Origin: a virus
Taxonomy: Duplodnaviria > Caudoviricetes
IMG/VR virus record: IMGVR_UViG_3300023199_000106
Span: 1 to 58,731 of that record
DNA: 58,731 nucleotides
Direction: 5' to 3' (one strand)
Part shown: positions 1 to 58,731 of the stretch, one piece after another
Position numbering within the stretch: position 1 is the first letter of the stretch
Layout of the letters: the number at the start of each line of letters is the position of its first letter
Notes under the pieces: generated by a model
What the model saw: only the letters and a program-made list of their open reading frames with translations
What the model was told of the DNA's origin: nothing
The model's database searches: none
Made by a program: the position numbers and the translations under genes

Positions 1-137
1 GCCCATTCTGAATTGTGAGCCACCAGCTCAGTCCATTTTCTGGGCTGAGCTTCGAGCCAATCGAGTGCTTCTGAGCAAGCGCCAAGCTCGCGTGCACAGT
101 TGATCATTTCCTGTGTGATTAGGTAGTCAGTCATCAT
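1..137 (-). CDS. 5' half of 22-aa repeat protein paralog B (continues at 58393-58731 across the contig junction)
   Basis: ATG at 137 with GGAG RBS; reads MMTDYLITQEMINCARELGACSEALDWLEAQPRKWTELVAHNSEW, near-identical to the N-termini of 167-742 and 57047-57823. Confidence 0.85.
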   Translation of the reverse strand, partial: MMTDYLITQEMINCARELGACSEALDWLEAQPRKWTELVAHNSEW

Positions 138-5518: not shown

Positions 5519-5544
5519 AAGTATACAAATATACAGTATTTTTT

Positions 5545-35038: not shown

Positions 35039-38000
35039 CCCATACTCCCAAGATATTATTGATTCTCTGCGTAGTCACGGGATTGACGTACCCGACCCTG
35101 TACAGCCTTTGACACATCAGCAGCGAGTCCGACTTGGCGAGTTGAATCACGAAGCATCGGTTCTTGACAACTTTCATAGTGTTAAGGAACAAGAACGTTT
35201 AGAGAGGCTTCAGCAGGATACTAGGACTATACGACGTCATATCAGCCAGTCCGAAGAAGATCAGCAGGCGTTGCGCCGACGGCTGCTCGATACTGCCGCA
35301 CAGCCTGAGCCTGATCAGCCCCCGACCCTGTTAGACACGATGCGAGTGTCTGGCGATCGGGATTTTCGGCTGGAAGCCCGCGTCGCTCTCGAAGATACGA
35401 CGACGCCTGCCGGCCGGGGTCTGCGAGCGGCGGGCCAAAGCTTGGCCGCAGCCGTGCCAGGCACCGAGGCGCTGATCCGTGGCACTTTCGGCGACGAACG
35501 CGGCGCTGTGCTGGCTGCAGACCGGGCATTGCGACGGCAGGAGAGGGCGGCTGAGATCGGCCCCGACACCAGCATGCGCGGGGTGCTAGAGGGGGACGAC
35601 AGCCTGGTTGAGTGGGCAGCCGGCGCGATAAGTGCTCAGGCGCCGATCCTGGCGACGTTCATCGGCTCAGGATTCGTGGGCGGTCTTGTGTCCCGCGGGC
35701 TGCAGCAAGGGGCGGCTCAGGCACTCAGAGCGCAGGCCGTGCGCACCGGGGCGACGCTGGCTGGCACCGAACGCCGCGTTGCGGCTCAGCTGCTCCAGCT
35801 CAATCGCGCCAGAGAGGCCCACGCAGCGGCGCGCACCCGCAGCACGGCCGGTGCTGTTGGGGGGCGAACTACGCAGCTCCGGTACGACCGGCAGCGCCTG
35901 GCGATGGCTCAGGAGGTTCACGACGAAGCGCGCGAGCTGCTGGTGCGCCACGCACTAAAACGAGCACGGAACGAGCAGATCGGCAGCGCGGTGGCCGCGA
36001 CGAGCGCTGGGGTGCCTTTGTATGGCGCTGAGACCAGCCAGTTTTTGATTGACCCGGAAGCCGACGCGACGATCCAGCAGCGCGCGGCCGCAGGCATTGG
36101 GGCGGCGTTTGTCGCCTCATTGGCGTCTATGGCACCCACCGTGGCCGTGTTGCGGAACGTCGACATGGGCGCCAGCGCTGCGTTCCAGATTCAGCGGGCC
36201 ACTCAGTCCGCTCTGACTCGCGTAGGGGGCGCTGCGGGTCGGCAGGCGGTGTACGAAGGCTCAGCCGAAGCTGTGGCCGAAATCAGCAAAACCGCAGTGC
36301 ACGGACTGATCAACGATAACATCGAGGTGTTCAGCAACGACCAGATATGGCAATACATGGAGGCTGCAGTGGTCGGCGGCATGCTGGGTGGCGGGATCGG
36401 GGGCGCGACGGCTGCACGCGGTAGCGATTTCCGCGAGCTGAGCAGCTGGATGATGCGGCTGCGGCCGGCCGGCCCGTCAGAGTCGCTGGTGATTCAAAGT
36501 CGTTCAGAAGCTGAGCGCTCTCGTTCTGCTCGCCGCGCGCAGCCTGAGAACGACCAGGCGCGCCAGCTGTACGACACGCTGGATGACGAGACGCGCGCGC
36601 AGCAGAGCTTTGAAGGCCCAGGCGGGTTCCTTGAAGAGTTCAAGTGGGATCGGGCCGAAACGACCGCTCTGGGCAATCTGGTGGATGGCATGGACGCGCT
36701 GGAAGCTGGTACGTTGCTACGGATTCTGGTGGACCCTACGGCCGCCGAAGCAGCAGCGACTCCTCTTGAGTCCGGAGCCGAGCTCTCGTCCCTGGGCTCA
36801 GCGGCCTACGAACGCTTGGCCGCAGTGGTTGGCGAAGGAAACATGGCAGCGACCCTTGATGCGGCGCGTGACTCTCTTTTGGCGCAGGAAGCGTTCCTGC
36901 TGCGCATGGATAACCTGGCGTTTGACACGAAGCCGTTGGCACCTGCTGAAGCTCGCCAGATGTCTCGTCGGATTCAGGGGCGTCGGGAGCGCATCAAGGC
37001 GATTCGGGTAGAGATGCAGAGCGAAGGCATTGAATCTTCACCGGCGTTTAACCGAGAAATGGCTGCCGAGATGCTGGGTGATCGGTTTGGGCAGGATCGA
37101 GTATCGGTAGCGGTCGATGATGAGGAGCTTGTCAGCGCGGAGCTTACTAAGGAAGGCATCCAGCGCGATGCAGGTGACGAAGAATTCATAGCAGGTACAC
37201 AAGAAGCGGATCTGGTCGTTTCGTTTCCGTTTGGCCCGGACGACCGTGCTGCTGGCCCGGATGCCCAGCCGCGGAGCACAGAAGGGAAAACGAACATCGG
37301 TCCGGTCGGCCGAGTTTGGACGCGCAACTCCGAGGCAGCGCGCAAGCAGGCGGAGAAGATCAACCAGCGCTCGGGTATGGACCTCGAAGCAGGCCCTGGC
37401 CCCGCCCAAGTGGTGCCGGTCGCTGAGGCAATGGAGCGGGCGAAAATGAGCTCAGAGGACATTATTGCCGTGGCTCGGGAGCACTGGGTAGAGGATACGG
37501 GGCGAGGTAGTCGGTTCAGAAAAGAACAGGCTAAAAAAGCAGCTGACGTTGCAAAAGTACAGGCCGAAGTAGAGCAGGTGCGACAGAGGCTGGCAGAACT
37601 AAAAGCGCAGGCCCCATCTCCAATTGCGCAAATCCAAGAAGAACGTAACAACTTAATCGCTAGACTAGAGGTAGAGGTAGAGTCTGCAGACGACCGCGTA
37701 GCCGCAGCTCGGTTGGAAATAGCCAAAGCCTACCTCAATCAGTTCGAAACTGTCATTTCCGAGCGGCTGCCAGATAGTGTGTCTGGGCGGGAGCAGCGCC
37801 GCTTTTCTGACCGTGAGGCCAATGCTCTAATCCTCTACAAGATGCCATTGAATTTAGAAGGGCATACTCGAGGTGAGCTGGCCGGCAGCCCGGTGGCGAT
37901 CAATATAGTTGGTGCGACGCAAGCGATGTACGGGCGCATCGATGATCGCCAGGCATCCGGCCGGTCTAAAGAAGAACGGCAACGTTCAGGCGAGCGTGAA

Positions 38001-41000
38001 CGCGCTGAAGGTGGTACCTCGCGTGCTGAGGCCGGCCTTGATGGGATTGCGCGGGCGTTCAGCGAAGCGATGGCGGCGATGATCGAGCGCGGCGTCAAAT
38101 TCCCCCCGACAATCCGAGGCGATACGATCGTGTTCCGTCGTGCAGGCGGCGAAGCGATCACGGCTGGTGAACTGATCGGGCAGACCGCACTATCGAAGAA
38201 AGCCGCTCGGATGATTCAGGACACGGACGTTGCCGGCCTGACGCGCAATCGCAACCGGCTCCAGGCGGCTCTGAAAGCCACTTGGATGATTCAGGACACG
38301 GACGTTGCCGGCCTGACGCGCAATCGCAACCGGCTCCAGGCGGCTCTGAAAGAAGCCAAGGGAAAAGAGCAACGCGCGGCGTTGATGCAGCGTATCAAGT
38401 CATTCAACGCACGGATCGAAAAAGCCAAAGGATTGAAAGAGCAACGCGCGGCGTTGATGCAGCGTATCAAGTCATTCAACGCACGGATCGAAAAAGCCGA
38501 AGCAGCTCAAGAAAAGCAGATCAAGCGTTTGCTCGATCAGGCGAAGGGGCTGGAGCGCGCAGTCAGTATTGTGGGCGCAGCGCCTTTCAAAAAGCGGTCA
38601 GATGCCTCGCTCAAAGAGCAGGCGGAGAGACGTCTTGCTGTCCTGAACAAAAAGCGCACCAGTCTTGCAGCCAAAGGTGAGCAGGCAGGCCTCATCAAAA
38701 ACAAAAAAAAGAGGGAAGCAGCGTTCGACGCACTGACAGTTGAGTGGTCAGACTGGCGCGCGGAGCAAGCGGCTTGGGTGGCGATCCGCGACATGCTCGA
38801 CACGTTGACCCCGAAGCAGACTGATGCACGGCTGACTCGCGCCCGGAAGCGCCTGGCTCGCGCTAAGGTAGCGTTGATGGAAGAGCGTTTGGACCGAGCG
38901 TACATAGCGCTGGGATTACGCGAAGGCGCGCAGACCAACTCGCGCGTCGAGACCATGAAAGAATTTATTCGCAACGAAATCAATGGTGTCAATGAAGCAG
39001 CGTTCAGAGACCCTGATCAGGGGTACGTAATTTTCGGCGAGAAGGTCCAGCTCGATGAAGGCCACGACATCCGTGTCAAAGAGCTACGCCGCGAGTTAAA
39101 GATGCTTAAAAAGATAGAGGAGCCATCACAAGAGCAGATTGAGTATATCCAGCTGCTGCAGGAGGCGTTACCTGACGATTTCTCTGTCCTGCTAGGCCCC
39201 ACAATATTTGCTATCAAACAACAGCTGGAAGCGCTTAAGAATCGTAAGCCGCTCGCTACTCTTGCTAGTCAGACTGAGCTAGGACGCATAGAAGTCGTAG
39301 CTCGGTATTCTCCGGAAACTCTTCGATCTAACCCAGAAAAAGTTTATGTATTTGGAGATAACCTTGTTAAGAAGGGTAAAGGCGGTCAAGCAATAATTCG
39401 AGACGAACCAAATGCATTTGGTATCCCAACTAAGCGGCTACCGTCAATGTCTGCGCAGGCTTTTTTTGGTAAAAATATCACAGAAGAAAAAGCCGCTATT
39501 ACGGCGGCAATAGATGAGTTAATAGCTCTTCGGCGGCAAGGCAAAACCATAGTTTTCCCTCGCGATGGACTTGGTAGTGGGCGCGCGCGCATAATACAAA
39601 AATCACCAGAAGTTGCTGCCCATTTATCTTCTGAACTTAAGCGTTTTCGTAGTTTAGAACAAACTGAGCAGAAACAGCCCGCTCAGCCCGCTCAGCCCGC
39701 TCAGCTCGCTCAGCCCGCTGCAACCCCAGAAGTCAAAAAGTCCGCTCAGGCAGTCGAGCAACAGCTAAAAATTCCTGAGTCTGGAAAAGGAAGTTTAGCA
39801 AACCCTCACGTTGTTCCGATGAACTTCGAAATCAGCCGTCCTGAGCTACGAGACAAGTACAAAGGGTCGGACGGAATTGCAAAGTTGATTCGTAATAAAG
39901 CTTGGCTTGCAACTTTTAGGCGTCCATTAGTAGGAGTTAAGCAAGGGCATATTTTCAGTATTCCCTTATTTCTCGGTAAATACCAAGTAATAGGGTTTGT
40001 AAAAACTGACTTGAAAAGCGGAGGTTGGAGCATAGAAGCAGAAAGTACTTTTAGTAGTCAAGTACAGCACGGGGAAACTCAGATGTTGTTTTTTCGCGTT
40101 GATGAAGCTCAGCCCGCTCAGCCCGCTCAGTCTGCTCAGCTCGCTCAGCCCGCTGCAACCCCAGAAGTCAAAAAGTCCGCTCCCGCCGCCGCCAAGCGTC
40201 AAGTTGTAGAAGATGCCATCGTGCGGGCGACAACCCAGGTCAATACGGCCCAACGCGAAAATGAAGCGCGGTACGCCAGCCGGATCATCAAGGGATTGAA
40301 GCTGGCACAAACGACGCTCGGCAGCGTAATCTCAACAGCTGAAGCGGGCAAGCGGGTCAAGGGGAAGAACATCGACCTGAACAACCACGACGGTCTGGTC
40401 TTCCAGCGCATCAACCGGGAGACCGGTGAAATTACGATCGATATATGGGTCAACGAAACAATCACCGACCCGGCTGAGCGCCTGGGTGTGATTCACCATG
40501 AGATGGGGGAAGCAATCGTGACCAGCCTGGCGTACAAGATTGACGTAGGCGACGCTGTAGCAATCATCGCTGCGTACAACAAGTGGCGTGCGCAGGCAGA
40601 ACGAGGCTCCCAGGGTGCAGTAATCAAATCGAAGCGTAGTCTGCTGAACATGCTGCGGGTGCGGCGTAATGACCCGACGATGATAGAACAGCTGACCCAA
40701 GCGGAGCGCGATAACCTGCTCGATTTCCAGGAATGGTTTGCTGACAACGTGGGGCGCTGGCTCGAAACCAACGCTCGGCCTCGAGGCGTCATTGAGAAGT
40801 TCTTCGCCAGCGTTGCGGCTAAGCTCAAGCAGCTCATGGGGCTAAATCGGAAAGAAGGGCTACCGGAAACAACGGTAGCCAGTATGCTGAACCGGATGTG
40901 GGACAGCAAAGCGCCGAACGGGCATATCCGCAAGTTCAATCTTTGGCAGCAGCTGACGAAGCACGAGGCGCTCAGCCGAGTTTCGAAGATCGAAGACATC

Positions 41001-44000
41001 GTCGAAGAGATCCGCAGCCAGTATAAAGGCCCGATCGACCCGAAGCGCGCGCTGACTGGGTCAGTCGTAGCCGCGACGCAGCCGCACTCGATCGAGGCGT
41101 TCTGGGGCATCCGTGATTACATCGTAGCGAAGATGTCGTCAGAAGAACGGCGTGCTCTCAGCCGCGTGTTCATTCGACCGAGCGTTCAGCGCTCGCTGAA
41201 AGCCACCTACCAGCGCTCAGCCAAGGCTGGGCAGATCATTCCGTCTGACCCGCTTTCTCAGCTGGCTGTTGGCTACATGCTCTACACCGCTGGAAAGCTC
41301 GATCTTCAGCCAAACTCAGCCAAACCTTTCCGGGCGATGAGCCAATGGCTGCACAAAGTAGCCGGCATGGTCCAAGCGCACGACCAAGCGTATCAAGTGC
41401 TCTCGGCCATCCAGGCTGACGTGTTCAGCGCTCGGGAAACCACGTTGTTCGCTGAAGCGCCAAGCGGCAGCGGGCTCAACCGGGGTGCGTACGTCCTGGA
41501 GTCGGCCCAGCTGCGGCAGCTGGCACAGTGGGAGAAGCTGTTCAACATTACCGAGCAGCTGTCCAATGGAGCCAAAGGTGTCAACGAGCTGATCGAGACT
41601 CTGGTCGACCGAGCCGACCCAAGTGTGTTCCCCAAACATCTGCATGCCAATCTGATAGCCGACATGAGCGGGGGGGTGTTCACTGAAGAGTTCCTGGCTC
41701 AGTTCAAAGACCAGAGCGATTTTGTGCTGAATCCAGACAAGACGTTCGAGATCCAGAAAATCATCGGCACTGAGCCGTTGCAGCACAGTGCACAGGCCGT
41801 CTACAACCTGCTCAGTGGCAGCAAGGACTTTTTGCGCAACAGCCTGCTGGGTAAAGCCGCGTTGGGTGAAGCGTACCGCGGCCGCTTGATGGAGAACCTG
41901 GGGTTCCTGGGGCTGCAGGAGGCGTTGTTCACCGACGTTCTGCAGGAAGGTCCAGGCGAAGGGTTCATCAACCGAAAAGACTGGATGAGCGGCGCGTTTC
42001 AGACAGAGTGGGAGAGCATTTGGTCCGGGCTGACCGTCGATGAACAAAAGAATTTTCGTGAGGCGTTCTACCGCCACGAAAAACCGTCGACCCCTGCCGT
42101 GCAGGCTGCGCTGCAGCGCACGAATCGATTCATGCGGAAGCTGCACAAGTACGCGCAGGAAGTGGGTTTGCTCAAAGGCAGCCGGTTCGATGGGAATTAC
42201 CGCCCCTGGGCGTTTGACGCCAGGAAAGTGGACCTCCATTCTTCGAGGCTGCTGGAAGCCTGGACGCATCAGCGCTACCGCAAGCAGTGGTTCAAACTGT
42301 TGAAAAAACACTACCCAGACCAATATGCAATCCAGGAGGACTTTACTTCTGACGCTGATTATCAGTCCTACGTGCGGGCCTGGATCGCTAGCATCGCATT
42401 CGAAAACGGGTTTGCTGACAACCATAGACCGAACCCGGACGAAGTGCGGACCCAGCCGATTGCCCAGGCGCTCAACCGGCGCGAACTGGCTTTTCTGGAT
42501 GATCCGAAACTGGCACCGGAAGCTGATCGACAGCTGCTGGCCGGCCTGTTTGATGACTCGATCAACACGACCATGGCGAAATACATTAGCCAGATGGTCA
42601 AAAAAGTCGAGTACGTTCGAAAGTTCGGAGCGCATGATGAAAAACTGAATCGTCTCTACGCTCAGGCTCGAGAACTTGGCGCGACAGACAAGGATGTTGA
42701 GCTGATGCAGAACATGGTGAAGTCAGCCACCGGTCGGCACGGGCTGGAGGTAGCGACGTTCTGGAAAAAGATCGCTGAGCCGATCAACAAGCTCTACAAG
42801 CCTGTGCGAGATACGGGTGGGCAGCCGTTCAAATCACGCGAAGACGCTATGCACGCGCTCAAGAGCATGACCGGCAGCGGAGAAGTTGTCTCTGTTGAAG
42901 GCGGTTTTGAAGTGCGTCGGAGCATAACCGCGGACCCACGCCGGTTCAGACAAAATATGAGTTGGGTAGTGGTGTATCAAAATTGGAGGTTATTGGCTAT
43001 GGCAGCCTTTACGAACGTGGCTGACCTGGCAGGCATTGCGTTTCGAACGGGCAACCTGTTTTTGGCGTTCGAGGCGTACCGGGAAGGCGTGGGGAGGGTA
43101 ATCAGAGATGTGAAGGGGGCCAAGCGCCCGGCGGATGTCAAGCGGGCCGAGATGGACAGCGTCGAGCGGCTGGCCCAAGAGCTGGGTGTCGTTGCGCACG
43201 CGAGCGTCTCAGATCACCTGGGGCTTCAGTATGGATCGGTGCACATGACTGGGAGGGCCAAGATATGGAACGACACCCTGTTCAAGCTGAATGGCATGGA
43301 GTACCTGACGCGGGCGATCCGGATAATGGCTGTGGCCGCAGGGCGCCGGTATCTGGCGATGCACGCTCAGCTGGCCAAGGATGGGGTGGAAGGCAGCATC
43401 GAGCTGCTGACGCAGCTGGGGCTGGACCCAGCGGACGTCAGGCTCGACGCTGATGGGGAGCTGACGTTGATGCCGATCGACCGGATCAACGAGGTGTTGG
43501 AGGGCTCAAAGTTCGCTACAGGCATCGGGGTCAACGAGGCGATCAATCGGGGGGAGAAAGTAGATGCGAAGGCCGCTGAAGTGGCCCGTGACGACCGGGT
43601 CAAGCGGGCGCTGAACCGTATGGTCGACGAGTCCGTGCTGCGGCCGGCCAGCTGGCAGCGGCCGACCTGGATGAACGACCCGAACTGGCAGATCTTTAGC
43701 CACCTGAAAGGCTTTATGTACACCTACCATGAACGGGTGTTGCGCCGGATCATTGGCCGGGGCATAGCCGGCAGCGTAGCCCCGCTAATCATGGCAGCAG
43801 GGTATGTTGCAGTCATGATTGCCGCGGACTGGCTGCGGGAAATCATCCAGCACGGGCCAGAAGGTGACGATCGAAAAGAGCGCTGGGGAGTCAAGGAGCG
43901 CGTCGCTGACGGCATCCACCGCTCAGGGCTGCTGGGGATGTACACTGTGATCCCTGACATGATGAAAACGCATGAGTTCGGCCGCAGCATGCTGGCGCAG

Positions 44001-44234
44001 ATGGGTGGGCCGGCGACAAGCCAGGTCGAGCAGCTGTATCGAGCGCTGCTCGGCCCTGGCGACGTCGGTATGGCGTTCAGGCGAGCGCTACCAGCGTCAC
44101 AGATAGTAGTGGACCCAATGGTCAGCTGGAGCAGTTGGGCAGTCAATCCAAAAGCCCTGGAGCCGGAGCGAAGAGGTCTTGGCGTGCCGCTGGTGCGCCC
44201 GGAAGTAGTCGAGGCGCTGAGCAGTGACGGCTGA
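35028..44234 (+). CDS. giant (3068 aa) polyvalent internal virion protein
   Basis: Gly/Ala-rich membrane-like segments; VFGDNL..GKGGQA..NAFGIPTK domain; HHEMGE + EWFAD zincin-like motif; helical C-terminus. Confidence 0.75.
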   Translation: MASDPYSQDIIDSLRSHGIDVPDPVQPLTHQQRVRLGELNHEASVLDNFHSVKEQERLERLQQDTRTIRRHISQSEEDQQALRRRLLDTAAQPEPDQPPTLLDTMRVSGDRDFRLEARVALEDTTTPAGRGLRAAGQSLAAAVPGTEALIRGTFGDERGAVLAADRALRRQERAAEIGPDTSMRGVLEGDDSLVEWAAGAISAQAPILATFIGSGFVGGLVSRGLQQGAAQALRAQAVRTGATLAGTERRVAAQLLQLNRAREAHAAARTRSTAGAVGGRTTQLRYDRQRLAMAQEVHDEARELLVRHALKRARNEQIGSAVAATSAGVPLYGAETSQFLIDPEADATIQQRAAAGIGAAFVASLASMAPTVAVLRNVDMGASAAFQIQRATQSALTRVGGAAGRQAVYEGSAEAVAEISKTAVHGLINDNIEVFSNDQIWQYMEAAVVGGMLGGGIGGATAARGSDFRELSSWMMRLRPAGPSESLVIQSRSEAERSRSARRAQPENDQARQLYDTLDDETRAQQSFEGPGGFLEEFKWDRAETTALGNLVDGMDALEAGTLLRILVDPTAAEAAATPLESGAELSSLGSAAYERLAAVVGEGNMAATLDAARDSLLAQEAFLLRMDNLAFDTKPLAPAEARQMSRRIQGRRERIKAIRVEMQSEGIESSPAFNREMAAEMLGDRFGQDRVSVAVDDEELVSAELTKEGIQRDAGDEEFIAGTQEADLVVSFPFGPDDRAAGPDAQPRSTEGKTNIGPVGRVWTRNSEAARKQAEKINQRSGMDLEAGPGPAQVVPVAEAMERAKMSSEDIIAVAREHWVEDTGRGSRFRKEQAKKAADVAKVQAEVEQVRQRLAELKAQAPSPIAQIQEERNNLIARLEVEVESADDRVAAARLEIAKAYLNQFETVISERLPDSVSGREQRRFSDREANALILYKMPLNLEGHTRGELAGSPVAINIVGATQAMYGRIDDRQASGRSKEERQRSGERERAEGGTSRAEAGLDGIARAFSEAMAAMIERGVKFPPTIRGDTIVFRRAGGEAITAGELIGQTALSKKAARMIQDTDVAGLTRNRNRLQAALKATWMIQDTDVAGLTRNRNRLQAALKEAKGKEQRAALMQRIKSFNARIEKAKGLKEQRAALMQRIKSFNARIEKAEAAQEKQIKRLLDQAKGLERAVSIVGAAPFKKRSDASLKEQAERRLAVLNKKRTSLAAKGEQAGLIKNKKKREAAFDALTVEWSDWRAEQAAWVAIRDMLDTLTPKQTDARLTRARKRLARAKVALMEERLDRAYIALGLREGAQTNSRVETMKEFIRNEINGVNEAAFRDPDQGYVIFGEKVQLDEGHDIRVKELRRELKMLKKIEEPSQEQIEYIQLLQEALPDDFSVLLGPTIFAIKQQLEALKNRKPLATLASQTELGRIEVVARYSPETLRSNPEKVYVFGDNLVKKGKGGQAIIRDEPNAFGIPTKRLPSMSAQAFFGKNITEEKAAITAAIDELIALRRQGKTIVFPRDGLGSGRARIIQKSPEVAAHLSSELKRFRSLEQTEQKQPAQPAQPAQLAQPAATPEVKKSAQAVEQQLKIPESGKGSLANPHVVPMNFEISRPELRDKYKGSDGIAKLIRNKAWLATFRRPLVGVKQGHIFSIPLFLGKYQVIGFVKTDLKSGGWSIEAESTFSSQVQHGETQMLFFRVDEAQPAQPAQSAQLAQPAATPEVKKSAPAAAKRQVVEDAIVRATTQVNTAQRENEARYASRIIKGLKLAQTTLGSVISTAEAGKRVKGKNIDLNNHDGLVFQRINRETGEITIDIWVNETITDPAERLGVIHHEMGEAIVTSLAYKIDVGDAVAIIAAYNKWRAQAERGSQGAVIKSKRSLLNMLRVRRNDPTMIEQLTQAERDNLLDFQEWFADNVGRWLETNARPRGVIEKFFASVAAKLKQLMGLNRKEGLPETTVASMLNRMWDSKAPNGHIRKFNLWQQLTKHEALSRVSKIEDIVEEIRSQYKGPIDPKRALTGSVVAATQPHSIEAFWGIRDYIVAKMSSEERRALSRVFIRPSVQRSLKATYQRSAKAGQIIPSDPLSQLAVGYMLYTAGKLDLQPNSAKPFRAMSQWLHKVAGMVQAHDQAYQVLSAIQADVFSARETTLFAEAPSGSGLNRGAYVLESAQLRQLAQWEKLFNITEQLSNGAKGVNELIETLVDRADPSVFPKHLHANLIADMSGGVFTEEFLAQFKDQSDFVLNPDKTFEIQKIIGTEPLQHSAQAVYNLLSGSKDFLRNSLLGKAALGEAYRGRLMENLGFLGLQEALFTDVLQEGPGEGFINRKDWMSGAFQTEWESIWSGLTVDEQKNFREAFYRHEKPSTPAVQAALQRTNRFMRKLHKYAQEVGLLKGSRFDGNYRPWAFDARKVDLHSSRLLEAWTHQRYRKQWFKLLKKHYPDQYAIQEDFTSDADYQSYVRAWIASIAFENGFADNHRPNPDEVRTQPIAQALNRRELAFLDDPKLAPEADRQLLAGLFDDSINTTMAKYISQMVKKVEYVRKFGAHDEKLNRLYAQARELGATDKDVELMQNMVKSATGRHGLEVATFWKKIAEPINKLYKPVRDTGGQPFKSREDAMHALKSMTGSGEVVSVEGGFEVRRSITADPRRFRQNMSWVVVYQNWRLLAMAAFTNVADLAGIAFRTGNLFLAFEAYREGVGRVIRDVKGAKRPADVKRAEMDSVERLAQELGVVAHASVSDHLGLQYGSVHMTGRAKIWNDTLFKLNGMEYLTRAIRIMAVAAGRRYLAMHAQLAKDGVEGSIELLTQLGLDPADVRLDADGELTLMPIDRINEVLEGSKFATGIGVNEAINRGEKVDAKAAEVARDDRVKRALNRMVDESVLRPASWQRPTWMNDPNWQIFSHLKGFMYTYHERVLRRIIGRGIAGSVAPLIMAAGYVAVMIAADWLREIIQHGPEGDDRKERWGVKERVADGIHRSGLLGMYTVIPDMMKTHEFGRSMLAQMGGPATSQVEQLYRALLGPGDVGMAFRRALPASQIVVDPMVSWSSWAVNPKALEPERRGLGVPLVRPEVVEALSSDG

Positions 44235-50490: not shown

Positions 50491-52212
50491 CTAACAGACG
50501 TTGCGGCGACAATGCCCAGTGCCTGGGTAGGCCCGCTTACCACGGCCAACAATGCCGGCTTTGTACGGGCAATACCGGCAGGCAAAGTGTGAAGGTGTAG
50601 CAGGAAATATAGTTGTGCTGAGAATCCTTTCATGCTTGGCTTTCATTGTTGGAAAAGCACGAAGGACTTCGGAGCGCGTAAAAGTGCGCTTCATGATGTT
50701 TTCGCCAGGGGGCAGGTCGAGGTACCCGACAGCGACATCAAAAATCTGGATGTCTGAATTGGCTAAACTCACACCAATAGCGTATTCCATCAACTGCTCA
50801 TGATGTTTGATCTCGTTGTTTTTCTTTTTACCTGTATTATGAGTGGGAATCAAAGCTCGAGTACAGAGATACGTATGCGAAGGCGAATCGACAGCTATAC
50901 ATTGAGTCGGAACAGAATCAACTACACGCACGTCTCTTAGTTTTCTGTATGACGAGTGGCCTTCTCCCCAAGAGTCTACGCCTTTTACTTTTCTGGGCAA
51001 CGAAAAAGGGTTAATGTTTCTTGGTCTAAAAGAAACATAATAAGCTTGGGTTTTTTTTTCAAACCCTGTAGATTTATGAGGGGATACGTACGCCTGTTGG
51101 CCCAGAGAATTGGCGAGAGTTTTTATTTGCTCAGCAAGGTGCTCCACAGTTGTTGTATATACGGCTTGTTTACGTGTATGATTGGCGTCTCCATCTCCAT
51201 CCATAAGCCCTTGAAGCAGATCCAGTCGTTGTTTTACAGACCCGTTCATATAAACATCTGGAATAAATTTGTTTCTGCCGCAATTTAACAACCCCAGCTT
51301 TCTTAACGCCCCTCTAATACCTTGAACGGTGTACGTCGGGCACTTGTTTTTGTGCACCTTAGTATGTGTATTAACAGCATACCCTAGACTTTGTACTTTT
51401 TGCCAGATAAAATTTTCCGGGTTAGATACCTTACTTGAAGAATGCGTTCCGTCGGCCAACCAAAGACCAAGAACGTATGGATGTATAGGTAGCTTTTTAC
51501 GATGTAAATTGAGAGCGTCGGGCACTGGCAAGGCAATACTCTTTCCTTGCTGAAAACGTGCAGCTAATTCTTGCACGTCTACAACGTCTCCGTTGTGAAG
51601 CATCCATAAATGCTCAGCGTCACACACCACTTTTGTCCTATCTTTGAAAACCAATTCGTAACACGGGAGGTGTTTTACTTGTGATTTTCCGGTTACTTTG
51701 CAATGCGCTCCGTTTTTATCAAATACAGTGTCACCGACTTGGATTTCCCCCATCGTAACAAAACCATTTGGGGTAGCAATTTCAGTGTCTAAGGCAAGTC
51801 CTTTCCAATCAAGGATAAAAATTCTGTCGTCAGAAACTGTTACAGCGACGTCGATGATCATGCGGTACCGAGCATTTTCAAAATCGTCGCCAGCGCAAAC
51901 AGCCCAGTCGCTGTCGAACGCAATGCCTATTTCGAGATCAACTTTGCCTCGTTCGTAGCCTTTGCGAAGCGCGTTGAGCAATGGTAAGTGATGCCGCAGC
52001 TCGTGTGCGGGCTTGAGCAACGGGTTCTGAACATAGTCTTCGCACAGTTTGTGAATGCGCGAGCCACGGTCCATTGGATGCTCTTCGCCTTCAGGCAGCT
52101 CAGGCGCCGGATCAGGTACTTTTTCCAAGTGCTTGAGCTGGAACATGTAAGGGCACTTGGCATAGTCCTGCGCTCGGCTGAAGCTGGTGGACTTGACGAC
52201 GAGACTATCCAT
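50491..52212 (-). CDS. PD-(D/E)XK (RecB/Cas4-like) exonuclease with intein (about 251 aa after splicing)
   Basis: SFS..Y.KCP, RGSRIH, IDV, ILDWK|TG, QL..Y, C..CPY..C cluster. Confidence 0.9.
   Translation of the reverse strand: MDSLVVKSTSFSRAQDYAKCPYMFQLKHLEKVPDPAPELPEGEEHPMDRGSRIHKLCEDYVQNPLLKPAHELRHHLPLLNALRKGYERGKVDLEIGIAFDSDWAVCAGDDFENARYRMIIDVAVTVSDDRIFILDWKGLALDTEIATPNGFVTMGEIQVGDTVFDKNGAHCKVTGKSQVKHLPCYELVFKDRTKVVCDAEHLWMLHNGDVVDVQELAARFQQGKSIALPVPDALNLHRKKLPIHPYVLGLWLADGTHSSSKVSNPENFIWQKVQSLGYAVNTHTKVHKNKCPTYTVQGIRGALRKLGLLNCGRNKFIPDVYMNGSVKQRLDLLQGLMDGDGDANHTRKQAVYTTTVEHLAEQIKTLANSLGQQAYVSPHKSTGFEKKTQAYYVSFRPRNINPFSLPRKVKGVDSWGEGHSSYRKLRDVRVVDSVPTQCIAVDSPSHTYLCTRALIPTHNTGKKKNNEIKHHEQLMEYAIGVSLANSDIQIFDVAVGYLDLPPGENIMKRTFTRSEVLRAFPTMKAKHERILSTTIFPATPSHFACRYCPYKAGIVGRGKRAYPGTGHCRRNVC
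50836..51801 (-). mobile_element. class 3 intein with LAGLIDADG homing endonuclease (322 aa)
   Basis: starts GLALDTEI, ends THN|T; HLW, QCIAV, PTHN; LLQGLMDGDG. Confidence 0.9.
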
Positions 52213-52482: not shown

Positions 52483-53832
52483 TCATTTTAAAAGCTCCAT
52501 CAGATGGCTCATAGCATCGAGTTTTTCACCTATGCGCTCGTACACTTTTTCTTCCAGTGTACCTTTAGCGCACACGCGGATGCTCTCTGTTGCAAGCGAC
52601 TGCCCACCTCGACGTATGCGAGCATCGCCTTGGACCAGTAAGTCTGCGCGGTCTGTAGGGGAGCACCAGATGACTGACGTGCCTTTAGTTAATGTTAAGC
52701 CGTGAGCACCGGACTGCGGGTGCATCAGCAAAGTCTGGTACTCACCGGCCTGATACCGAGAAACAAGATCTGCGCGGTCCTTGTTTTTCGTATCTTTGCC
52801 GATCTCAGCAAACTTAACCTTCTTTTTGGTCAGCGCTTCTGTAAGCCCTTCACGTTGGTGCTGCCAATTCCAGAACACTACGCTGTGCGTGCGCCCAAGA
52901 ATCAGCTCAACAATCAAATCCGTACGCCCACTGTCCAGATTAAACACTTTATCCTTGCCATATACACGGCCAGAAGCAACCTGTAGCAGCTTCTGACGGA
53001 GGCTGGCTGCATTGAGTGCAGTAACCTCACCTTCTTGAAGCTGCAACAGACAGTATTCTTTGAGCTTTTCGTAAAATTCGAGCAAGCGCTTTGAAGGTTG
53101 GTAGTACAACAAATGCTTGGTTTGCTCAGGAATGTTCTTCATGACAACATCAAATTCGTGGCGTACGCTGATGTCGCTTAAGATCTGGGCCACAGTTTCT
53201 CGAGATTCTGGCTTGTCTTCCCATTTAGACCATTCAGGCTTCATAGGATTGATGATGATCTGTTTGCATACAACATCACGGAAAGCAAAAAAGCTGGTGC
53301 CCAGCCGTTCACCGTGGTCGAGAATTAAAACTTGATGCCAGATGTCAGTAATGCTGTTACTTGTCGGTGTACCAGTCATACCCACTCGATAGTGGAAATA
53401 ATTAGACAGTTTTTTCAGCGCCTTTGATCGGGCGGAAGTACGGTGCTTGAAATAGCTGATCTCGTCGATGATCAGGGTATCAAACCCATCGAAGAATTTA
53501 CGCGGTTTCTTTGCCAGCGTAGTAACAGCGTCAGTGTTAGTGATATATAGATCTGCTTCTACTTTAAAAGCAGCCGCACGGTTTTTTGCATATGCTACGG
53601 AAAAAAGCAGCTTTGGTTGAAACTGTCTAACGTCTGCTGCCCAAGCTGGATCAAGCAGCGGTTTTGGGGCAATAACCAACGCTTTGCCACCGCCAGCAAA
53701 GCGTCGCTTAGCAAAAGCGTCGATTGCTGCGCGCGTTTTGCCAGTTCCAGGATCTGAAGTATCCAAAATAATTGGTGTTCGCTCATAAACATTAAGTGAT
53801 TGTTTTTGGTGTGGCCAAGGAACAGGTATCAC
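52483..53832 (-). CDS. SNF2-family helicase
   Basis: PWPHQ, DPGTGKT, IIDEIS, MTGTP, GAHGLTL, Q..ARIRR.GQ. Confidence 0.93.
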   Translation of the reverse strand: MIPVPWPHQKQSLNVYERTPIILDTSDPGTGKTRAAIDAFAKRRFAGGGKALVIAPKPLLDPAWAADVRQFQPKLLFSVAYAKNRAAAFKVEADLYITNTDAVTTLAKKPRKFFDGFDTLIIDEISYFKHRTSARSKALKKLSNYFHYRVGMTGTPTSNSITDIWHQVLILDHGERLGTSFFAFRDVVCKQIIINPMKPEWSKWEDKPESRETVAQILSDISVRHEFDVVMKNIPEQTKHLLYYQPSKRLLEFYEKLKEYCLLQLQEGEVTALNAASLRQKLLQVASGRVYGKDKVFNLDSGRTDLIVELILGRTHSVVFWNWQHQREGLTEALTKKKVKFAEIGKDTKNKDRADLVSRYQAGEYQTLLMHPQSGAHGLTLTKGTSVIWCSPTDRADLLVQGDARIRRGGQSLATESIRVCAKGTLEEKVYERIGEKLDAMSHLMELLK

Positions 53833-56153
53833 TTTACTACCTCCAACTTCTTTTCAATTTTCAATCCATATTCTGGTACTTGCCAATTTACTTTGACGCC
53901 TAAAACGCCACTAAAGCGATCAAGAAATATACCGTGGTGTTTAAGCATTTGAACGAATTTAGGCGTTGTCTGTGGAACAGAATCTGAACCAATAGTGCGC
54001 AGTAACACATGGAGCTCATCACGATCGATAATCTGCGCCTCCCCACGTCGTGCAGCCCTCTCAGCTTCAACTAGCGTTTTCTGCACGCGGTCTATTGATA
54101 TGCGGTCAACCATGTCTCGGCTGGACAGTGGGGAGCTGGCAGAAGGAGCGACATCTATAAAATGCTGGAGATCACCGGCATCAAGCGCTCGGAGCAGCTG
54201 ATGGATTGAAGGTGAACTTAAGCTGCGCATCAATTTGCTTTGCTCGGTCTCAATAGGCGTGCGCAAAACATTGAAATCTACGTTCCAGTGGTAAAGGATC
54301 GTTGCAAAGTCCATGAGTTCTGACTGAATGGCGTCAATTTCTGAGTCTTTCATGTACAGACGATTTTCCTGATAAGGTGCTACGTTAAATCGTCTGTTGG
54401 TGTCGCTGATCGACACGGCTGCTCGTGAGTTTGAAGCCAGAATCACATTCATATAGTTTTTGGCTTCATAGTGGTTGACACCTTTTGAGTGAATTGGGAT
54501 GATTGGGTCAGTAATAGCCTGTTTGAGCTTAGCCATCGAACGGCTGTTCTGATCGATTTGTCGATGATCTGTTTCGTCAAGCATCAAAAGCACACAGTTT
54601 TCCATATACGCATTGAACGGGTCGTTTAACGTACTCATCAACGCAATGTGGACGTGCGAGCTACCAATCAGAGGAGACAAGACTCGGTGAACTAAAAGAC
54701 CTTTCCCAGTGCCTTCGCAGCCGCTTAACACCCAAGCTGTTTCAGCTCTCCGGCGCTTTTGTATAATGAAAGCTAGCCAGTTTAAGAACCGCTTAATAAC
54801 CTTAGCATCGTTACCTAGAGCCGACTTGAGAACTTTGGCAATTGTAGGTGGAAATGTTTTCGGCGCTGAGCCCATGCGGGCTTCGCGCAAGTAAGAAGTT
54901 TCTTGATATCGATTAAGCATGCGCTCTTCGGGTACGCAGACACGAGAATCATCAAACCGGAAGACATAGTCCCACTCTTCAACAAACTCACCGACCCATT
55001 GATTGTGTTGTCGGAGGAAGTCTTCAAGTTTTTTGACTGCGCTGGTTGGATACACATCAATTAAAGATGTCTCAGGGTTGAAAGTGCCTCGATAGTAAGT
55101 ATCTGACCGGCGATCAAGAAACGCCAGGTAGATGATGTCGCCGCTTTTGGAGTTTGCAGCGAGGATTTTTTTATATCCTTTGTAGTACTCAGGAACGATC
55201 TCTCGAGTGAGGTAGTTCGGTTCACCCTTGAAGTTAAACAATATTTCTGGGTTGTCGTTAGGGTGAAAATATCCCCAGCTATCTCCACCATTGAGATTAA
55301 GATACATAAACCCGCGAGCTTCTTTGTGGCTGGTTACAGCCACGATACCGGGTTTACTCAAAACTTCAATGCCGCTGATTATTTTAGTTGTGAATTTTTT
55401 TGCTTTGAGTCCTTTGCTTTTGCGCAATAAAGATAGCTTAGCATCTTTTTTTTCTTCGATAACAGCAGTATCAATAGTTTCAATCTGCTTGCGTAGGTCT
55501 GCCTTTGGTTTTGATTTGTAGATAATCCGTATGCGCTCTTCAGGCGGCACAGGATCAGTCATGCGCACGCAGTTGGGGGCAGCGATGTATATGAGCATTC
55601 CGTTGTTGGCCACAGAAATGTCCAAAGGCCATCGCAGCGCTGCGTTGCTTCGAGACAAACTGATGGCCTTTTCAAAATTTTCGATAGTCAGATTGGCGTT
55701 CATCAGCCAATATTTCAAAATCTCGGGTAGTATTTGATGATCAAGCATAAAAAACAAATGCGCAGAAAAAGGCTTGTCGATTTTGTGGCCGGCGCCATAC
55801 TGAAGAATGTAACTGACATCGCCCAAGCCCATAGTTTTCAACAGCGCTTCTATTTTCGATTCCGAATCAAGATAGTCGAAATCAAGACAGATCCATTCGG
55901 TGGGTTGCATTGGATCTGTCAACCCAGCTCTGGATTCGAGATCTAACGGTCGGGACAGTTTTCCTTTAAGAAGGCAGTGCTGGTTTCGGCTGTGGTAACG
56001 CAGCGCCGCTGCCATTTGGTCAATCGTTTCGACAGTCTCGAAATGAGAAGTCACCTGCTTGACCATAGGGTAGGCGTCTTTTAAAATACCGTTATCAGTT
56101 TGAGTGTAAGTCTTGACCAGAGGAACCCGAGCCTCAAGAAAGTGAAGCTCCAT
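53829..56153 (-). CDS. primase-helicase (N-terminal prim-pol-like domain, C-terminal SF3-like ATPase)
   Basis: CLDFD..SAHLFF; GCEGTGKG, MLDE, ASN, RRFNV. Confidence 0.85.
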   Translation of the reverse strand: MELHFLEARVPLVKTYTQTDNGILKDAYPMVKQVTSHFETVETIDQMAAALRYHSRNQHCLLKGKLSRPLDLESRAGLTDPMQPTEWICLDFDYLDSESKIEALLKTMGLGDVSYILQYGAGHKIDKPFSAHLFFMLDHQILPEILKYWLMNANLTIENFEKAISLSRSNAALRWPLDISVANNGMLIYIAAPNCVRMTDPVPPEERIRIIYKSKPKADLRKQIETIDTAVIEEKKDAKLSLLRKSKGLKAKKFTTKIISGIEVLSKPGIVAVTSHKEARGFMYLNLNGGDSWGYFHPNDNPEILFNFKGEPNYLTREIVPEYYKGYKKILAANSKSGDIIYLAFLDRRSDTYYRGTFNPETSLIDVYPTSAVKKLEDFLRQHNQWVGEFVEEWDYVFRFDDSRVCVPEERMLNRYQETSYLREARMGSAPKTFPPTIAKVLKSALGNDAKVIKRFLNWLAFIIQKRRRAETAWVLSGCEGTGKGLLVHRVLSPLIGSSHVHIALMSTLNDPFNAYMENCVLLMLDETDHRQIDQNSRSMAKLKQAITDPIIPIHSKGVNHYEAKNYMNVILASNSRAAVSISDTNRRFNVAPYQENRLYMKDSEIDAIQSELMDFATILYHWNVDFNVLRTPIETEQSKLMRSLSSPSIHQLLRALDAGDLQHFIDVAPSASSPLSSRDMVDRISIDRVQKTLVEAERAARRGEAQIIDRDELHVLLRTIGSDSVPQTTPKFVQMLKHHGIFLDRFSGVLGVKVNWQVPEYGLKIEKKLEVVK

Positions 56154-56225
56154 GTTTTCACCTGTATCTTTTTATGGTAGACTTATGTACAGTCACGGCG
56201 TGCTCTCCCACGTTGTGATAGTTTG

Positions 56226-56289
56226 AAGGTCCTGGCAGTTCGGTCGCTGCCAGGACCTTAATTTTACCTCACTGCGGTTGGTTCTGCAA
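56226..56289 (-). promoter_or_regulatory. sigma70-like promoter plus 13-bp hairpin ahead of the replication operon
   Basis: TTGCAG-17 nt-TAAAAT (56289-56261); AAGGTCCTGGCAG/CTGCCAGGACCTT at 56226-56259. Confidence 0.6.
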
Positions 56290-56344
56290 GCCTCGTTAAG
56301 AATCAGGTACTTGCGAGCTTACCTCACAGCACGTAAAACGCGGT

Positions 56345-56587
56345 TTACAAATGAGCTTCTACGATAATTGGTCTATTGAGGCTTATCGAACCATGCTCTA
56401 TTTGGCGCCCTGGTTGTAACCGCCAGCTAGTGTCGCCGAGCTTTTCTACAAGTTCAGCAGTGTAGATCTCATCTGAATTTTCGCTGTAAGCGCGCATTGC
56501 AGCGCTAATCGCTCGTTCTGCACTTTTTGCAGTAGTGGTTAAAAATGGTGTTTGTTCATTTAATCTAGTTAGCGTCACGGTAATCAT
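56345..56587 (-). CDS. hypothetical protein
   Basis: GAGGAGG RBS, start MITVT. Confidence 0.7.
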   Translation of the reverse strand: MITVTLTRLNEQTPFLTTTAKSAERAISAAMRAYSENSDEIYTAELVEKLGDTSWRLQPGRQIEHGSISLNRPIIVEAHL

Positions 56588-56789
56588 TATTGGCCTCCTC
56601 AATTTCCCATTGTCTTTGCGTCCGGCAATACATCTCGCCAGCAATCGCATTCTCAAAGCAGCGTTCTTGTTGCTGCGTAATAGCGGGTAGCGTGGTTGTC
56701 ATCCACGCAACAAAAATGAATAACCCGCCAAGAAAAATCATCAGCGCAATGAGACCAATTGTCTCTCGCAAAAAATCTCTAGTCGTCAT
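56565..56789 (-). CDS. small membrane protein
   Basis: GGAGG RBS; one TM segment. Confidence 0.7.
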   Translation of the reverse strand: MTTRDFLRETIGLIALMIFLGGLFIFVAWMTTTLPAITQQQERCFENAIAGEMYCRTQRQWEIEEANNDYRDAN

Positions 56790-57016
56790 TAGACTCCTCC
56801 CATCACGTGATAGATTATAGCCGCTATGGCCATGACGGCCGTCAACGCCACCATAGCGACGATGACATTGCCGACTCTAGCTTCATGGGCTGCGCGGCGA
56901 GCCTCGTACAGGCGACGTGGCTGAGCACTGACCCAGGGTTTCTCAGTAGACCCCATCTCGTCTGGCGTCCAGTCGGGTCGCTCGTAGTCAATTTGTTTTC
57001 TCGTGTCTGTGTTCAT
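56789..57016 (-). CDS. small membrane protein
   Basis: AAGGAG RBS; C-terminal TM segment. Confidence 0.75.
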   Translation of the reverse strand: MNTDTRKQIDYERPDWTPDEMGSTEKPWVSAQPRRLYEARRAAHEARVGNVIVAMVALTAVMAIAAIIYHVMGGV

Positions 57017-57046
57017 TTTTGTGCTCCTTGATATTGATGAATAAAA

Positions 57047-57823
57047 TTACGATTTGATCGGGCAGTCAGGCCGTTTAGCCACGATCCGAGCCCGTTCGTC
57101 CGAATCGAGTCCGGTCAGATCAATCGGGCAGTCGGGCCGCTCAGCCATGACCCAAGCCCGTTCGTATGAATTAAGCCCGGTCAGATCGATCGGACAGTCG
57201 GGCCGGTGGGCCATGACTCGCGCCCGGTTGAATGAATTAAGTCCGGTCAGATCAATCGGGCAGTCGGGCCGTTCAGTCATGACTCGCGCCCGTTCGGGTG
57301 AATTAAGCCCGGTCAGATCGATCGGGCAGTCAGGCCGTTCAGCCATGACCCAAGCCCGTTCGGATAAATTAAGCCTGGTCAGATCGATCGGGCAGTCGGG
57401 CCGCTTAGCCATGACCAAAGTTTGCTCGAATGAATTAAGCCCGGTCAGATCGATCGGGCAGTCGGGTCGGTAGACCATGATCCGAGCTCGGTCAGATGAA
57501 TTAAGCCCGGTCAGATCGATCGGGCAGTCGAGCCGTACAGTCATGACCCAAGCCCGTTCGTCCGAATTAAACCCGGTCAGATCGATCGGGCAGTCGGGCC
57601 GTTTAGTCATGATCCGAGCCCGTTCGGATGAATTAAGCCCGGTCAGATCGATCGGGCAGTCTGGCAGGTGGATAATCGCCCAAACAGCCCATTCAGAATT
57701 GTGAGCCACCAGCTCAGTCCATTTTTTGGGCTGAGCTTCGAGCCAATCGAGCGCTTCTGAGCAAGCGCCAAGCTCGCGTGCTTGGTTGATCATTTCCTGT
57801 GTGATTAGGTAGTCAGTCATCAT
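57047..57823 (-). CDS. 22-aa tandem repeat protein, paralog D (9 repeats)
   Basis: same architecture as paralog A; most divergent repeat units. Confidence 0.9.
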   Translation of the reverse strand: MMTDYLITQEMINQARELGACSEALDWLEAQPKKWTELVAHNSEWAVWAIIHLPDCPIDLTGLNSSERARIMTKRPDCPIDLTGFNSDERAWVMTVRLDCPIDLTGLNSSDRARIMVYRPDCPIDLTGLNSFEQTLVMAKRPDCPIDLTRLNLSERAWVMAERPDCPIDLTGLNSPERARVMTERPDCPIDLTGLNSFNRARVMAHRPDCPIDLTGLNSYERAWVMAERPDCPIDLTGLDSDERARIVAKRPDCPIKS

Positions 57824-57852
57824 TCTGCTTCTTTTGATATGAAAGAATAAAA

Positions 57853-58362
57853 TTACAATTTGATCAGGCAGTCAGGCCGTGCAGCCATGACCCAAGCCCG
57901 TTTGGATGAATTAAGCCCGGTCAGATCGATCGGGCAGTCAGGCCGCTCAGCCATGACCCAAGCCCGTTCGTTCGAATCGAGTTCGGTCAGATCGATCGGG
58001 CAGTCAGGCCGCTCAGCCATGACCCAAGCCCGTTCGTTCGAATCGAGTTCGGTCAGATCGATCGGGCAGTCGGGCCGCTCAGCCATGACCCAAGCCCGTT
58101 CGAATGAATTAAGCCCGGTCAGATCGATCGGGCAGTCGGGCCGGTAGGTTATGACTCGCGCCCGTTCGAATGAATTAAGCCCGGTCAGATCGATCGGGCA
58201 GTCGGGCAGGTGGATAATCGCCCAAAGAGCCCATTCTGAATTGTGAGCCACCAGCTCAGTCCATTTTTTGGGCTGAGCTTCGAGCCAATCGAGTGCTTCT
58301 GAGCAAGCGCCAAGTTCGCGTGCTTGGTTGATCATTTCCTGCGTGATTAGGTAGTTAATCAT
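57853..58362 (-). CDS. 22-aa tandem repeat protein, paralog C (5 repeats)
   Basis: AAGGAG RBS; same architecture. Confidence 0.9.
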   Translation of the reverse strand: MINYLITQEMINQARELGACSEALDWLEAQPKKWTELVAHNSEWALWAIIHLPDCPIDLTGLNSFERARVITYRPDCPIDLTGLNSFERAWVMAERPDCPIDLTELDSNERAWVMAERPDCPIDLTELDSNERAWVMAERPDCPIDLTGLNSSKRAWVMAARPDCLIKL

Positions 58363-58392
58363 ACTTGTGCTCCTTGATATTGATGAATAAAA

Positions 58393-58731
58393 TTACGATT
58401 CGATTGGACAATCGGGCCGGTGGGCCATGACTCGCGCCCGTTCGAATGAATTAAGCCCGGTCAGATCGATCGGGCAGTCGGGCCGGTGGGCCATGACTCG
58501 CGCCCGTTCGGGTGAATTAAGCCCGGTCAGATCGATCGGGCAGTCGGGCCGCTCAGCCATGACCCAAGCCCGGTTGTATGAATTAAGCCCGGTCAGATCA
58601 ATCGGGCAGTCGGGCCGGTGGGCCATGACTCGCGCCCGTTCGAATGAATTAAGCCCGGTCAGATCGATCGGGCAGTCGGGCCGTTTAGCCATGACTCGTG
58701 CCCGTTCGTCTGAATTAAGCCCGGTCAGATC
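58393..58731 (-). CDS. 3' half of 22-aa repeat protein paralog B (at least 5 repeats)
   Basis: frame is open to the window end; N-terminus lies at 1-137. Confidence 0.85.
   Translation of the reverse strand, partial: DLTGLNSDERARVMAKRPDCPIDLTGLNSFERARVMAHRPDCPIDLTGLNSYNRAWVMAERPDCPIDLTGLNSPERARVMAHRPDCPIDLTGLNSFERARVMAHRPDCPIES

Follow-up and report, generated by a model that had tools for sequence, protein, structure and literature searches.

We analysed a stretch of 58,731 nucleotides (hereafter the window), positions 1 to 58,731 of the IMG/VR record IMGVR_UViG_3300023199_000106, which comes from a tailed phage and carries, divided between its two ends, an array of four tandem paralogous genes (A to D) built from repeats of 22 residues. 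The repeats form a phage variant of the leucine-rich-repeat-variant (LRV) type of solenoid repeat that is new, shortened and hypervariable, and the genes are recombining tandem paralogs. On the basis of sequence and structural models, we lean towards the view that the array encodes a recombining set of small solenoid binders, placed in the replication arm of the genome and aimed at host proteins.

The array, its units and their variation

The four genes hold 25 units of 22 residues in all (6 in A, at least 5 in B, 5 in C, and 9 in D). Tandem Repeats Finder reports a tract with a period of 66 (25.0 copies, score 963, 57056-58731) and a second tract with 6.2 copies (score 553, 186-591), which together with the open reading frames (ORFs) confirms the genes and the copies of a 66-bp unit listed in a preliminary description of the window. 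All four genes start with ATG; AAGGAG lies 6-7 nt before the starts of A, B, and C, and the sequence for D is AAAAGAAG. The intergenic spacers are of 29-30 nt. All four genes stop within the loop motif of the unit, directly after RPDC(P/L)I (57047-57052, 57853-57858, 58393-58398, and 167-172), and the predicted solenoid would therefore lack a C-terminal cap. The last helix of such an uncapped solenoid may be free for end-on contacts. The N-terminal domain (hereafter the head), put at about 52 residues and said to be shared by the genes, is indeed present, but the domain proper covers only about 38 residues: residues 39-60 of A form a degenerate unit in the same register as the others, with N3, S4, and P15-T22 retained.

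Among the 25 units, position 5 takes six different residues (F8 D5 S4 N3 Y3 P2, 2.44 bits) and position 13 takes seven (E8 K6 H5 Y3 N1 A1 V1, 2.41 bits). Position 9 alternates mostly between arginine and tryptophan (R15 W9 L1), and position 6 carries about 1 bit (E20 N3 K1 D1). The residues given for these four positions in the preliminary description agree with our counts. Position 12 is also variable (A18 T6 V1, about 1 bit). The remaining 17 positions have at most 0.8 bits, and R14, D16, C17, and I19 are invariant, in line with the nearly invariant scaffold described before. Taken over positions 5, 6, 9, 12, and 13, the 25 units show 17 different signatures.

Variation is distributed in a similar way outside the window. 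In 111 distinct outside units, the entropy is highest at positions 5 (3.74 bits), 13 (3.22), and 9 (2.98), followed by 3, 6, and 12; positions 14, 16, and 17 were the anchor of the search that collected this set, and their constancy in it is partly by construction. The same pattern is found inside single loci on other contigs (L009, L010, and L014). When the metagenome loci are included, the set reaches 219 distinct outside units, in which Y, F, and W account for 88 of the residues at position 5 and the commonest residues at position 9 are W (63), R (49), and Y (24). Family-wide, position 5 accepts 19 different residues. Within the window, W9 is paired with E13 in 7 of the 9 units with W; we rejected this coupling as a trait of the family, in which only a weak association holds (12 of the 63 units with W, Fisher p 0.06).

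We then compared the codons of the 18 distinct internal units of the window. Of the 882 non-synonymous pairwise differences, 667 fall in five of the 22 codons. Non-synonymous divergence (pN) reaches 0.36 in the five variable codons, against 0.038 in the 17 codons of the scaffold, where synonymous divergence (pS) is 0.17. Hence, non-synonymous change is concentrated at the variable positions, but a pN/pS ratio above 1 is found at position 5 only (pN 0.50, pS 0.21). Diversifying selection at positions 5 and 13 would be consistent with these data, which fall short of proof given the small number of units, their relatedness, and their recombination.

Whole units are also shared between paralogs, as the earlier mention of shuffled repeats implied: identical or near-identical units occupy different slots in different paralogs. 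Three pairs of units have the same DNA sequence (A1 with B1, A2 with C1, and C3 with C4), whereas A3 and C3, and A4 and D7, differ by 1 nt despite their different slots. Loci L009 and L010 show a like sharing of units.

The contig that makes up the window breaks inside the array. Its first 127 nt and last 107 nt each reproduce exactly a part of gene A, and in A these two parts are 37 nt apart. The contig ends do not abut, and B is in frame only if 37 nt, or 37 nt plus more units or genes, are missing; the assembly broke there because the repeat is so long. In L009, the gene of PHROG 6186, the array, and a primase gene 69% identical to that of the window are contiguous, and this synteny supports closure across the contig ends. 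That gene B spans the junction is thus plausible, and can reasonably be inferred rather than observed, but the direct joining of the two ends does not stand, since about 37 nt are missing. Two sequencing runs of one study contain the phage; a 10.9-kb contig matches the window exactly as far as the edge of gene D, whereas the array is present only as unitigs of 32-135 nt. As for RNA, the 4 runs listed, all of one study, include no RNA data set that contains the phage. The depth of unit-specific unitigs (44-54, for 42.7 in the unique flank) and of shared ones (85-137) is not a copy number, and we count it as weak support for multiple copies. In the unitig graph, two joints of the "goes back" type and a loose end of 255 nt resemble pieces of the A/B region.

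Relation to LRV repeats, predicted fold and N-terminal head

The family, which the preliminary description did not recognise, can be placed by an hhalign comparison with an LRV protein and by a match to an LRV protein among predicted viral structures. No accepted family for the repeat proteins came out of searches in Pfam, PHROGs, NCBIfam, and PADLOC, with 0 families in PADLOC-DB and NCBIfam. The PHROG rows are for phrog_7582 (function unknown, E 4e-8 to 2e-4), with no stretch passing alone. Weak Pfam rows for Pellino_RING, Zn_ribbon_RlmA, Meleagrin, TBP, and Fn3_Dep-1_6th were rejected as repeat-driven noise, again with no stretch passing alone. The profile of the family, searched against 1.84e9 proteins, matches through its repeat part a protein, P0067 (E 5.1e-8), which is a true LRV protein (Pfam LRV 2.8e-55, a period of 26 residues, and the motif NPNCPVDLL). 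The profile alignment to the repeats of P0067 needs insertions of 4-6 residues per unit. The hhalign comparison of 58 tri-units of the family with tri-units of P0067 gave a probability of 96.3 (E 1.9e-9). These alignments suggest that the unit is a remote relative of the LRV repeats, shortened from 26 to 22 residues, and not a member of the Pfam LRV family.

The unit also departs from the other solenoid repeats that we considered. In LRV repeats, alpha and 3-10 helices alternate and the period is about 24-26 residues; here, the period is exactly 22 and there is one helix per unit. Canonical LRR units (LxxLxLxxN) have a strand each, but no strand is present in the units of the structural model and no LRR family is found among the Pfam results. 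For HEAT and Arm repeats, there is no Pfam row for A, C, or D, and the spacing is of one helix per 22 residues. A sequence search of the PDB gave nothing below E 0.025, and the row with that value is a ribosomal protein. The family is very rare. A word-indexed search of 5.8 billion proteins retrieved 17 relatives, and a complete search of 1.84 billion cluster representatives with the profile gave 185 matches at E<=0.001 (43 at E<=1e-10). Among the 150 matches listed of these 185, about 50 run through the repeat part and the others through the head alone.

We modelled the fold with AlphaFold2 on an alignment of 15 sequences. The model is a confidently predicted solenoid (pLDDT 94.8, pTM 0.84), with four short N-terminal helices followed by six helices spaced by exactly 22 residues. 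Each unit consists of one 10-residue helix (positions 4-13) and a non-helical stretch of 12 residues. The solenoid proposed in the preliminary description thus agrees with the regular helix-and-loop units of the model. So does the proposed alignment of the variable positions: on a helical wheel drawn from the predicted secondary structure and the residue counts, positions 5, 6, 9, 12, and 13 lie within about 120 degrees, with the conserved R7, A8, V10, and M11 opposite. The whole protein has no Foldseek match in the PDB at E<=0.001 (none below E 0.1). The best VIA-align scores against solved structures are in a range common for helical repeats and are uninformative (best Z 7.0); those at Z 6.5-7.0 include AP-3 (7p3x_A), alphaRep fusions (6fsq_A and 7p0h_A), and also armadillo proteins. 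The search of predicted viral structures in BFVD ranks first a phage protein that bears the name "Leucine rich repeat variant" (probability 0.99, TMq 0.58, E 0.11), and two further proteins of this name stand at ranks 4 and 27.

The head has a consensus of about 40-50 residues (I..I..A...GAC.EAL.WL...PRTW.EL......W..W). It has no Pfam family and no Foldseek match in the PDB, its best VIA-align score (Z 3.5) is uninformative, and the ESM Atlas scores of residues 1-56 (<=0.82) are at the level of chance. In 97 head-bearing proteins, Pfam identifies LRV repeats in 13, pentapeptide repeats in 7, HEAT repeats in 7, and ankyrin repeats in 1. In P0031, P0051, and P0018, the head recurs two to three times per protein, with repeats after each occurrence, and these proteins look like fused tandem arrays. 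P0053 and P0083 are also among the head-bearing proteins of note; single-protein queries with P0053 and P0031 found no viral contig. Another metagenome protein, P0054 (630 aa), has at least 8 tandem units of about 70 residues and matches positions 20-50 of the head profile (E 3.4e-10). Conversely, some members of the family have no head (L009b, L009c, and both L014 genes), and other N-termini exist, e.g., a MerR helix-turn-helix in the distant P0092. Overall, the head seems to be a domain family in its own right, as yet unnamed.

Distribution and genome setting

A scan for the loop motif in 241 million metagenome records gave 23 stretches on 21 contigs, which adds to the rarity of the family. 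With a criterion of two units per ORF, 14 of these contigs have at least two repeat ORFs, 6 have one, and 1 has none. Many are only 1-2 kb long, probably because repeats break assemblies. Arrays are internal to the larger contigs: L009 has genes of 194, 237, and 148 aa within 65.8 kb, and L010, within 59.2 kb, has a tandem pair plus a further copy at a distance of 2.7 kb. Loci L016, L018, and L022 are one contig, probably from the same phage as L009, given the equal lengths of the genes. Where flanks exist, the family sits in replication or recombination modules. The repeat genes are between those of a DNA polymerase and an SbcC-like protein in L024, after polymerase, helicase, and primase-helicase genes in L031, after SSB in L013, and, in L014, before a gene of an apparent annealing protein, a name that is our own reading.

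One of these loci shares more than the repeat gene with the window. In L013, the 3' part of the repeat gene and the genes of two small hydrophobic proteins are common with the window at 91% nucleotide identity; the two small proteins, with one hydrophobic stretch each, again follow the repeat gene (L013 3396-3820). These three genes apparently travel together as a single cassette. The backbone of L013 is different and only the cassette is common, and the repeat genes are therefore accessory and mobile between phages.

The record is classed as linear and 91% complete. It is a tailed phage that encodes a large terminase, a portal, and a 3,068-aa virion protein, as well as a DNA polymerase, a helicase, and a DUF5906 primase-helicase-like protein. 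Its closest named relatives are the Pseudomonas phages phiR18 and KPP25, at just 36% identity over the primase-like protein. In GenBank phage records, neither a DNA search with 53000-58731 nor a tblastn search with D (E<=1e-3) gave a match; the low-complexity filter may mask the repeats, but the head ought to have matched regardless. The array is on the minus strand, in the same arm as the replication genes (Table 1). The order on this strand is the PHROG 6186 gene, A, and the start of B, and, at the other end, the 3' fragment of B, C, and D; past D come the two small hydrophobic proteins, a 103-aa protein, and the primase-like gene. We found no promoter-like or terminator-like site on the minus strand inside the array.

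Table 1. Genes of the repeat array and their neighbours in the window.
Feature	Position	Strand	Remarks
Gene A, 191 aa	167..742	(-)	Three-helix head, degenerate "unit 0" (residues 39-60), 6 units; ends RPDCPIES*
Gene B, 5' fragment	1..137	(-)	ATG at 137, AAGGAG upstream; head runs off the left contig end
Gene B (presumed), 3' fragment	58393..58731	(-)	5 units and stop
Gene C, 169 aa	57853..58362	(-)	Head and 5 units; units 3 and 4 DNA-identical
Gene D, 258 aa	57047..57823	(-)	Head and 9 units
Upstream neighbour, 259 aa	754..1533	(-)	PHROG 6186, function unknown; likewise upstream of the array in L009
Protein of 75 aa, C-terminal hydrophobic stretch	56789..57016	(-)	96% identity to L013, unrelated backbone
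Protein of 74 aa, N-terminal hydrophobic stretch	56565..56789	(-)	98% identity to L013; same cassette
Downstream neighbour, primase-helicase-like	53829..56153	(-)	DUF5906, PHROG 24712; same relative position in L009 (69% identity)

Three other regions of the window drew our attention. A 26-bp unit is repeated 9.8 times with 100% identity at 5543-5797, in a stretch without ORFs of at least 50 aa (5464-5736). This tract, which has a short inverted repeat after it, is upstream of the minus-strand genes at 4234-5151 and could serve as an iteron or origin, or as an array of binding sites. The 3,068-aa ORF (35028-44234), whose C-terminus matches a virion structural protein PHROG (E 6.5e-38), has tandem duplications of 75 bp and 72 bp at 38198-38502. 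Finally, a 573-aa protein of the replication arm (50491-52212) has matches among PHROGs whose labels are large terminase, exonuclease, and helicase loader; the true large terminase is separate (14275-16902), and the 573-aa protein is probably an ATPase-nuclease of replication or recombination.

Possible functions, rival explanations and known systems

We propose that the unit is a contracted LRV-type repeat, in which an amphipathic helix spanning positions 4-13 leads into a fixed loop, RPDCPIDLTGL. Once stacked, the units would form a rigid scaffold with a ladder of Cys, Asp, and Arg, and the exposed helix faces (positions 5, 9, and 13, plus 6 and 12) would join into a continuous variable surface. 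The repertoire would shift through point substitutions at the variable positions, while unequal crossing-over or gene conversion would copy whole units among slots and paralogs and alter the number of units and of genes. The array is presumably expressed early. We infer that the variable surface binds proteins, the likeliest being host defence or takeover targets, and that the paralogs differ in their targets. The preliminary description put forward that the order of the repeats may set the specificity and that the proteins could be anti-defence binders. The proteins are acidic (pI 4.5-4.8, net charge -10 to -13), and this acidity, together with the many signatures and the aromatic-rich variable positions, favours the binding of proteins over a base-reading code.

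Some observations weigh against this picture of LRV-derived binders under selection to vary. Pfam LRV (PF01816) scores D at 15.1 bits (E 0.031), for a cut-off of 21.6, and has no row for A or C. It matches 5 of 45 members of the family at E<=1 (best 3.3e-4), a rate no higher than that of several plainly spurious Pfam families. P0067 was picked for the hhalign comparison because the profile of the family had found it. The exposure of the variable residues is deduced from helical periodicity, not from measured accessibility. The codon estimates come from non-independent, recombining units, and inside the variable codons pN/pS is 0.73-0.80, below 1, a picture that relaxed constraint on an exposed face could also yield. 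The main rival builds on the latter points: the variation would be neutral, in a repeat protein whose single function is fixed (for instance, as a scaffold or a replication accessory) and whose surface tolerates change at these positions, and the paralogs would be recent duplicates kept by chance or dosage. Many units are near-identical copies, which fits neutrality. Neutral drift accounts less readily for the conservation, in the window, of other positions that are likely exposed (1, 2, 4, 15, 20, and 22), for the same three positions topping the variation in independent loci, and for the enrichment of the variable positions in Y, W, and F. Besides, positions 5 and 13 have a pN of 0.50, some three times the pS of the scaffold (0.17). 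We therefore regard the neutral explanation as unlikely.

The other rivals follow at a distance from one another that we order as DNA mimicry, nucleic-acid reading, and a retroelement or artefact. An acidic and rigid solenoid could act as a DNA mimic or anti-restriction decoy, soaking up nucleases or DNA-binding defence proteins as do the known mimics Ocr, ArdA, and the pentapeptide-repeat proteins. The charge and pI of the proteins, the position of the genes amid the replication genes of the minus-strand arm, and the fusion of the same head to pentapeptide repeats in 7 of the 97 relatives would suit such a role. Yet a mimic requires a conserved pattern of charges and not a hypervariable, aromatic-rich surface, each unit has two to three conserved arginines, and no known mimic is among the fold matches listed, which makes mimicry quite improbable. 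The preliminary description had also raised a modular nucleic-acid reader; one unit would then recognise one base through positions 5, 9, and 13, like TALE, PPR, or PUF proteins. This we consider very improbable: in spite of regular units with few variable positions on one face, and of a weak structural likeness to PPR and PUF among many other solenoids (Z <=5.5; Foldseek E 4.2), the proteins are acidic, 17 signatures in 25 units do not amount to a small recurrent code, the variable positions are rich in aromatics, position 5 tolerates almost any residue in the family, and there is no significant fold match. The least credible account is that a diversity-generating retroelement produced the variation or that the array is an artefact of assembly. 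Every codon at position 5 has the form NNC or NNT, the outcome expected from adenine mutagenesis of AAC, but the 58.7-kb record, 91% complete, has no match to a reverse transcriptase (PF00078, E<=1), and neither the codons of position 9 (CGA, CGG, TGG, and TTG) nor the synonymous differences in the scaffold are adenine-only; hence, a retroelement mechanism is unlikely. As for an artefact, the contig does break inside the array, but the arrays of L009 and L010 are internal to their contigs and the unitig depths fit multiple copies.

A bolder version of the protein-binding reading, which we find doubtful, is that phages keep a recombining "library" of minimal 22-residue, single-helix binders, in which whole units are shuffled among tandem paralogs, three positions of the helix are diversified, each paralog neutralises its own host defence or takeover target, and the head is a common adaptor. 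The head, found on LRV, pentapeptide, HEAT, and ankyrin scaffolds, would then couple the bound targets to one partner, an idea that likens it to the F-box. If the variable face does bind host proteins, the array would give the virus a compact set of binders, evolving through the exchange of units, with a logic like that of the VLR and LRR arrays, yet in a phage. Paralog-specific targets would provide a handle on phage–host arms races, and the unit a very small natural scaffold for engineered binders; to our knowledge, a repeat of 22 residues with one helix is the smallest helical repeat. The presence of the head on four unrelated repeat scaffolds suggests an unnamed domain family whose partner may be key to function. 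If the variation is neutral, this is an ordinary accessory repeat protein, of value mostly as a new shortened LRV subfamily.

Among known systems, the LRV repeats (PF01816/PF25591), whose prototype structure is reportedly from Azotobacter vinelandii, resemble the unit in having a helix followed by a proline-containing turn (R/N-P-D/N-C-P-x-D-L), and the head of the family also heads the 13 Pfam-positive LRV proteins. They differ in period (26 residues in P0067 and 22 here), in the second helix, reduced to a loop in our model, and in that the present family is below the Pfam cut-off, phage-borne, and organised in tandem paralogs with a hypervariable face. HEAT-like, alphaRep, and armadillo proteins are also alpha-solenoids that bind through a variable helix face, and provide the best alignments to solved structures, but they have two to three helices per 31-42 residues instead of one per 22. 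TALE, PPR, and PUF proteins share the regular repeats with few specificity positions, whereas here the proteins are acidic, with many signatures and no significant match in sequence or fold. The ankyrin/PRANC host-range families of poxviruses combine a small conserved domain with variable repeats in accessory paralogs that change in copy number. This is the layout of the phage array, although the fold, the order of domains, and the host machinery differ, and we take the resemblance as an analogy only. Should the proteins work as a library, they would be a natural counterpart, by analogy, of the designed DARPin and alphaRep libraries.

A search of the literature on LRV repeats, phages, and the loop motif gave no paper on the family, although the supplementary clusters of PMC10392669 could include it. 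That work (Altae-Tran et al. 2020, PMC10392669), which mentions lamprey VLRs, describes loci of Flavobacterium psychrophilum in which up to 19 LRR surface proteins are encoded as tandem paralogs; each protein has 2-14 units of about 22 residues, with hypervariable positions on one side, and the copies show signs of recombination. As described there, these LRR proteins have beta/alpha units and are secreted to the bacterial surface, whereas the phage proteins, in which we saw no signal peptide, are all-helical and encoded beside replication genes. The F. psychrophilum loci are nevertheless the closest in concept to the array, with which they share tandem paralogs, hypervariable units of about 22 residues, and recombination.

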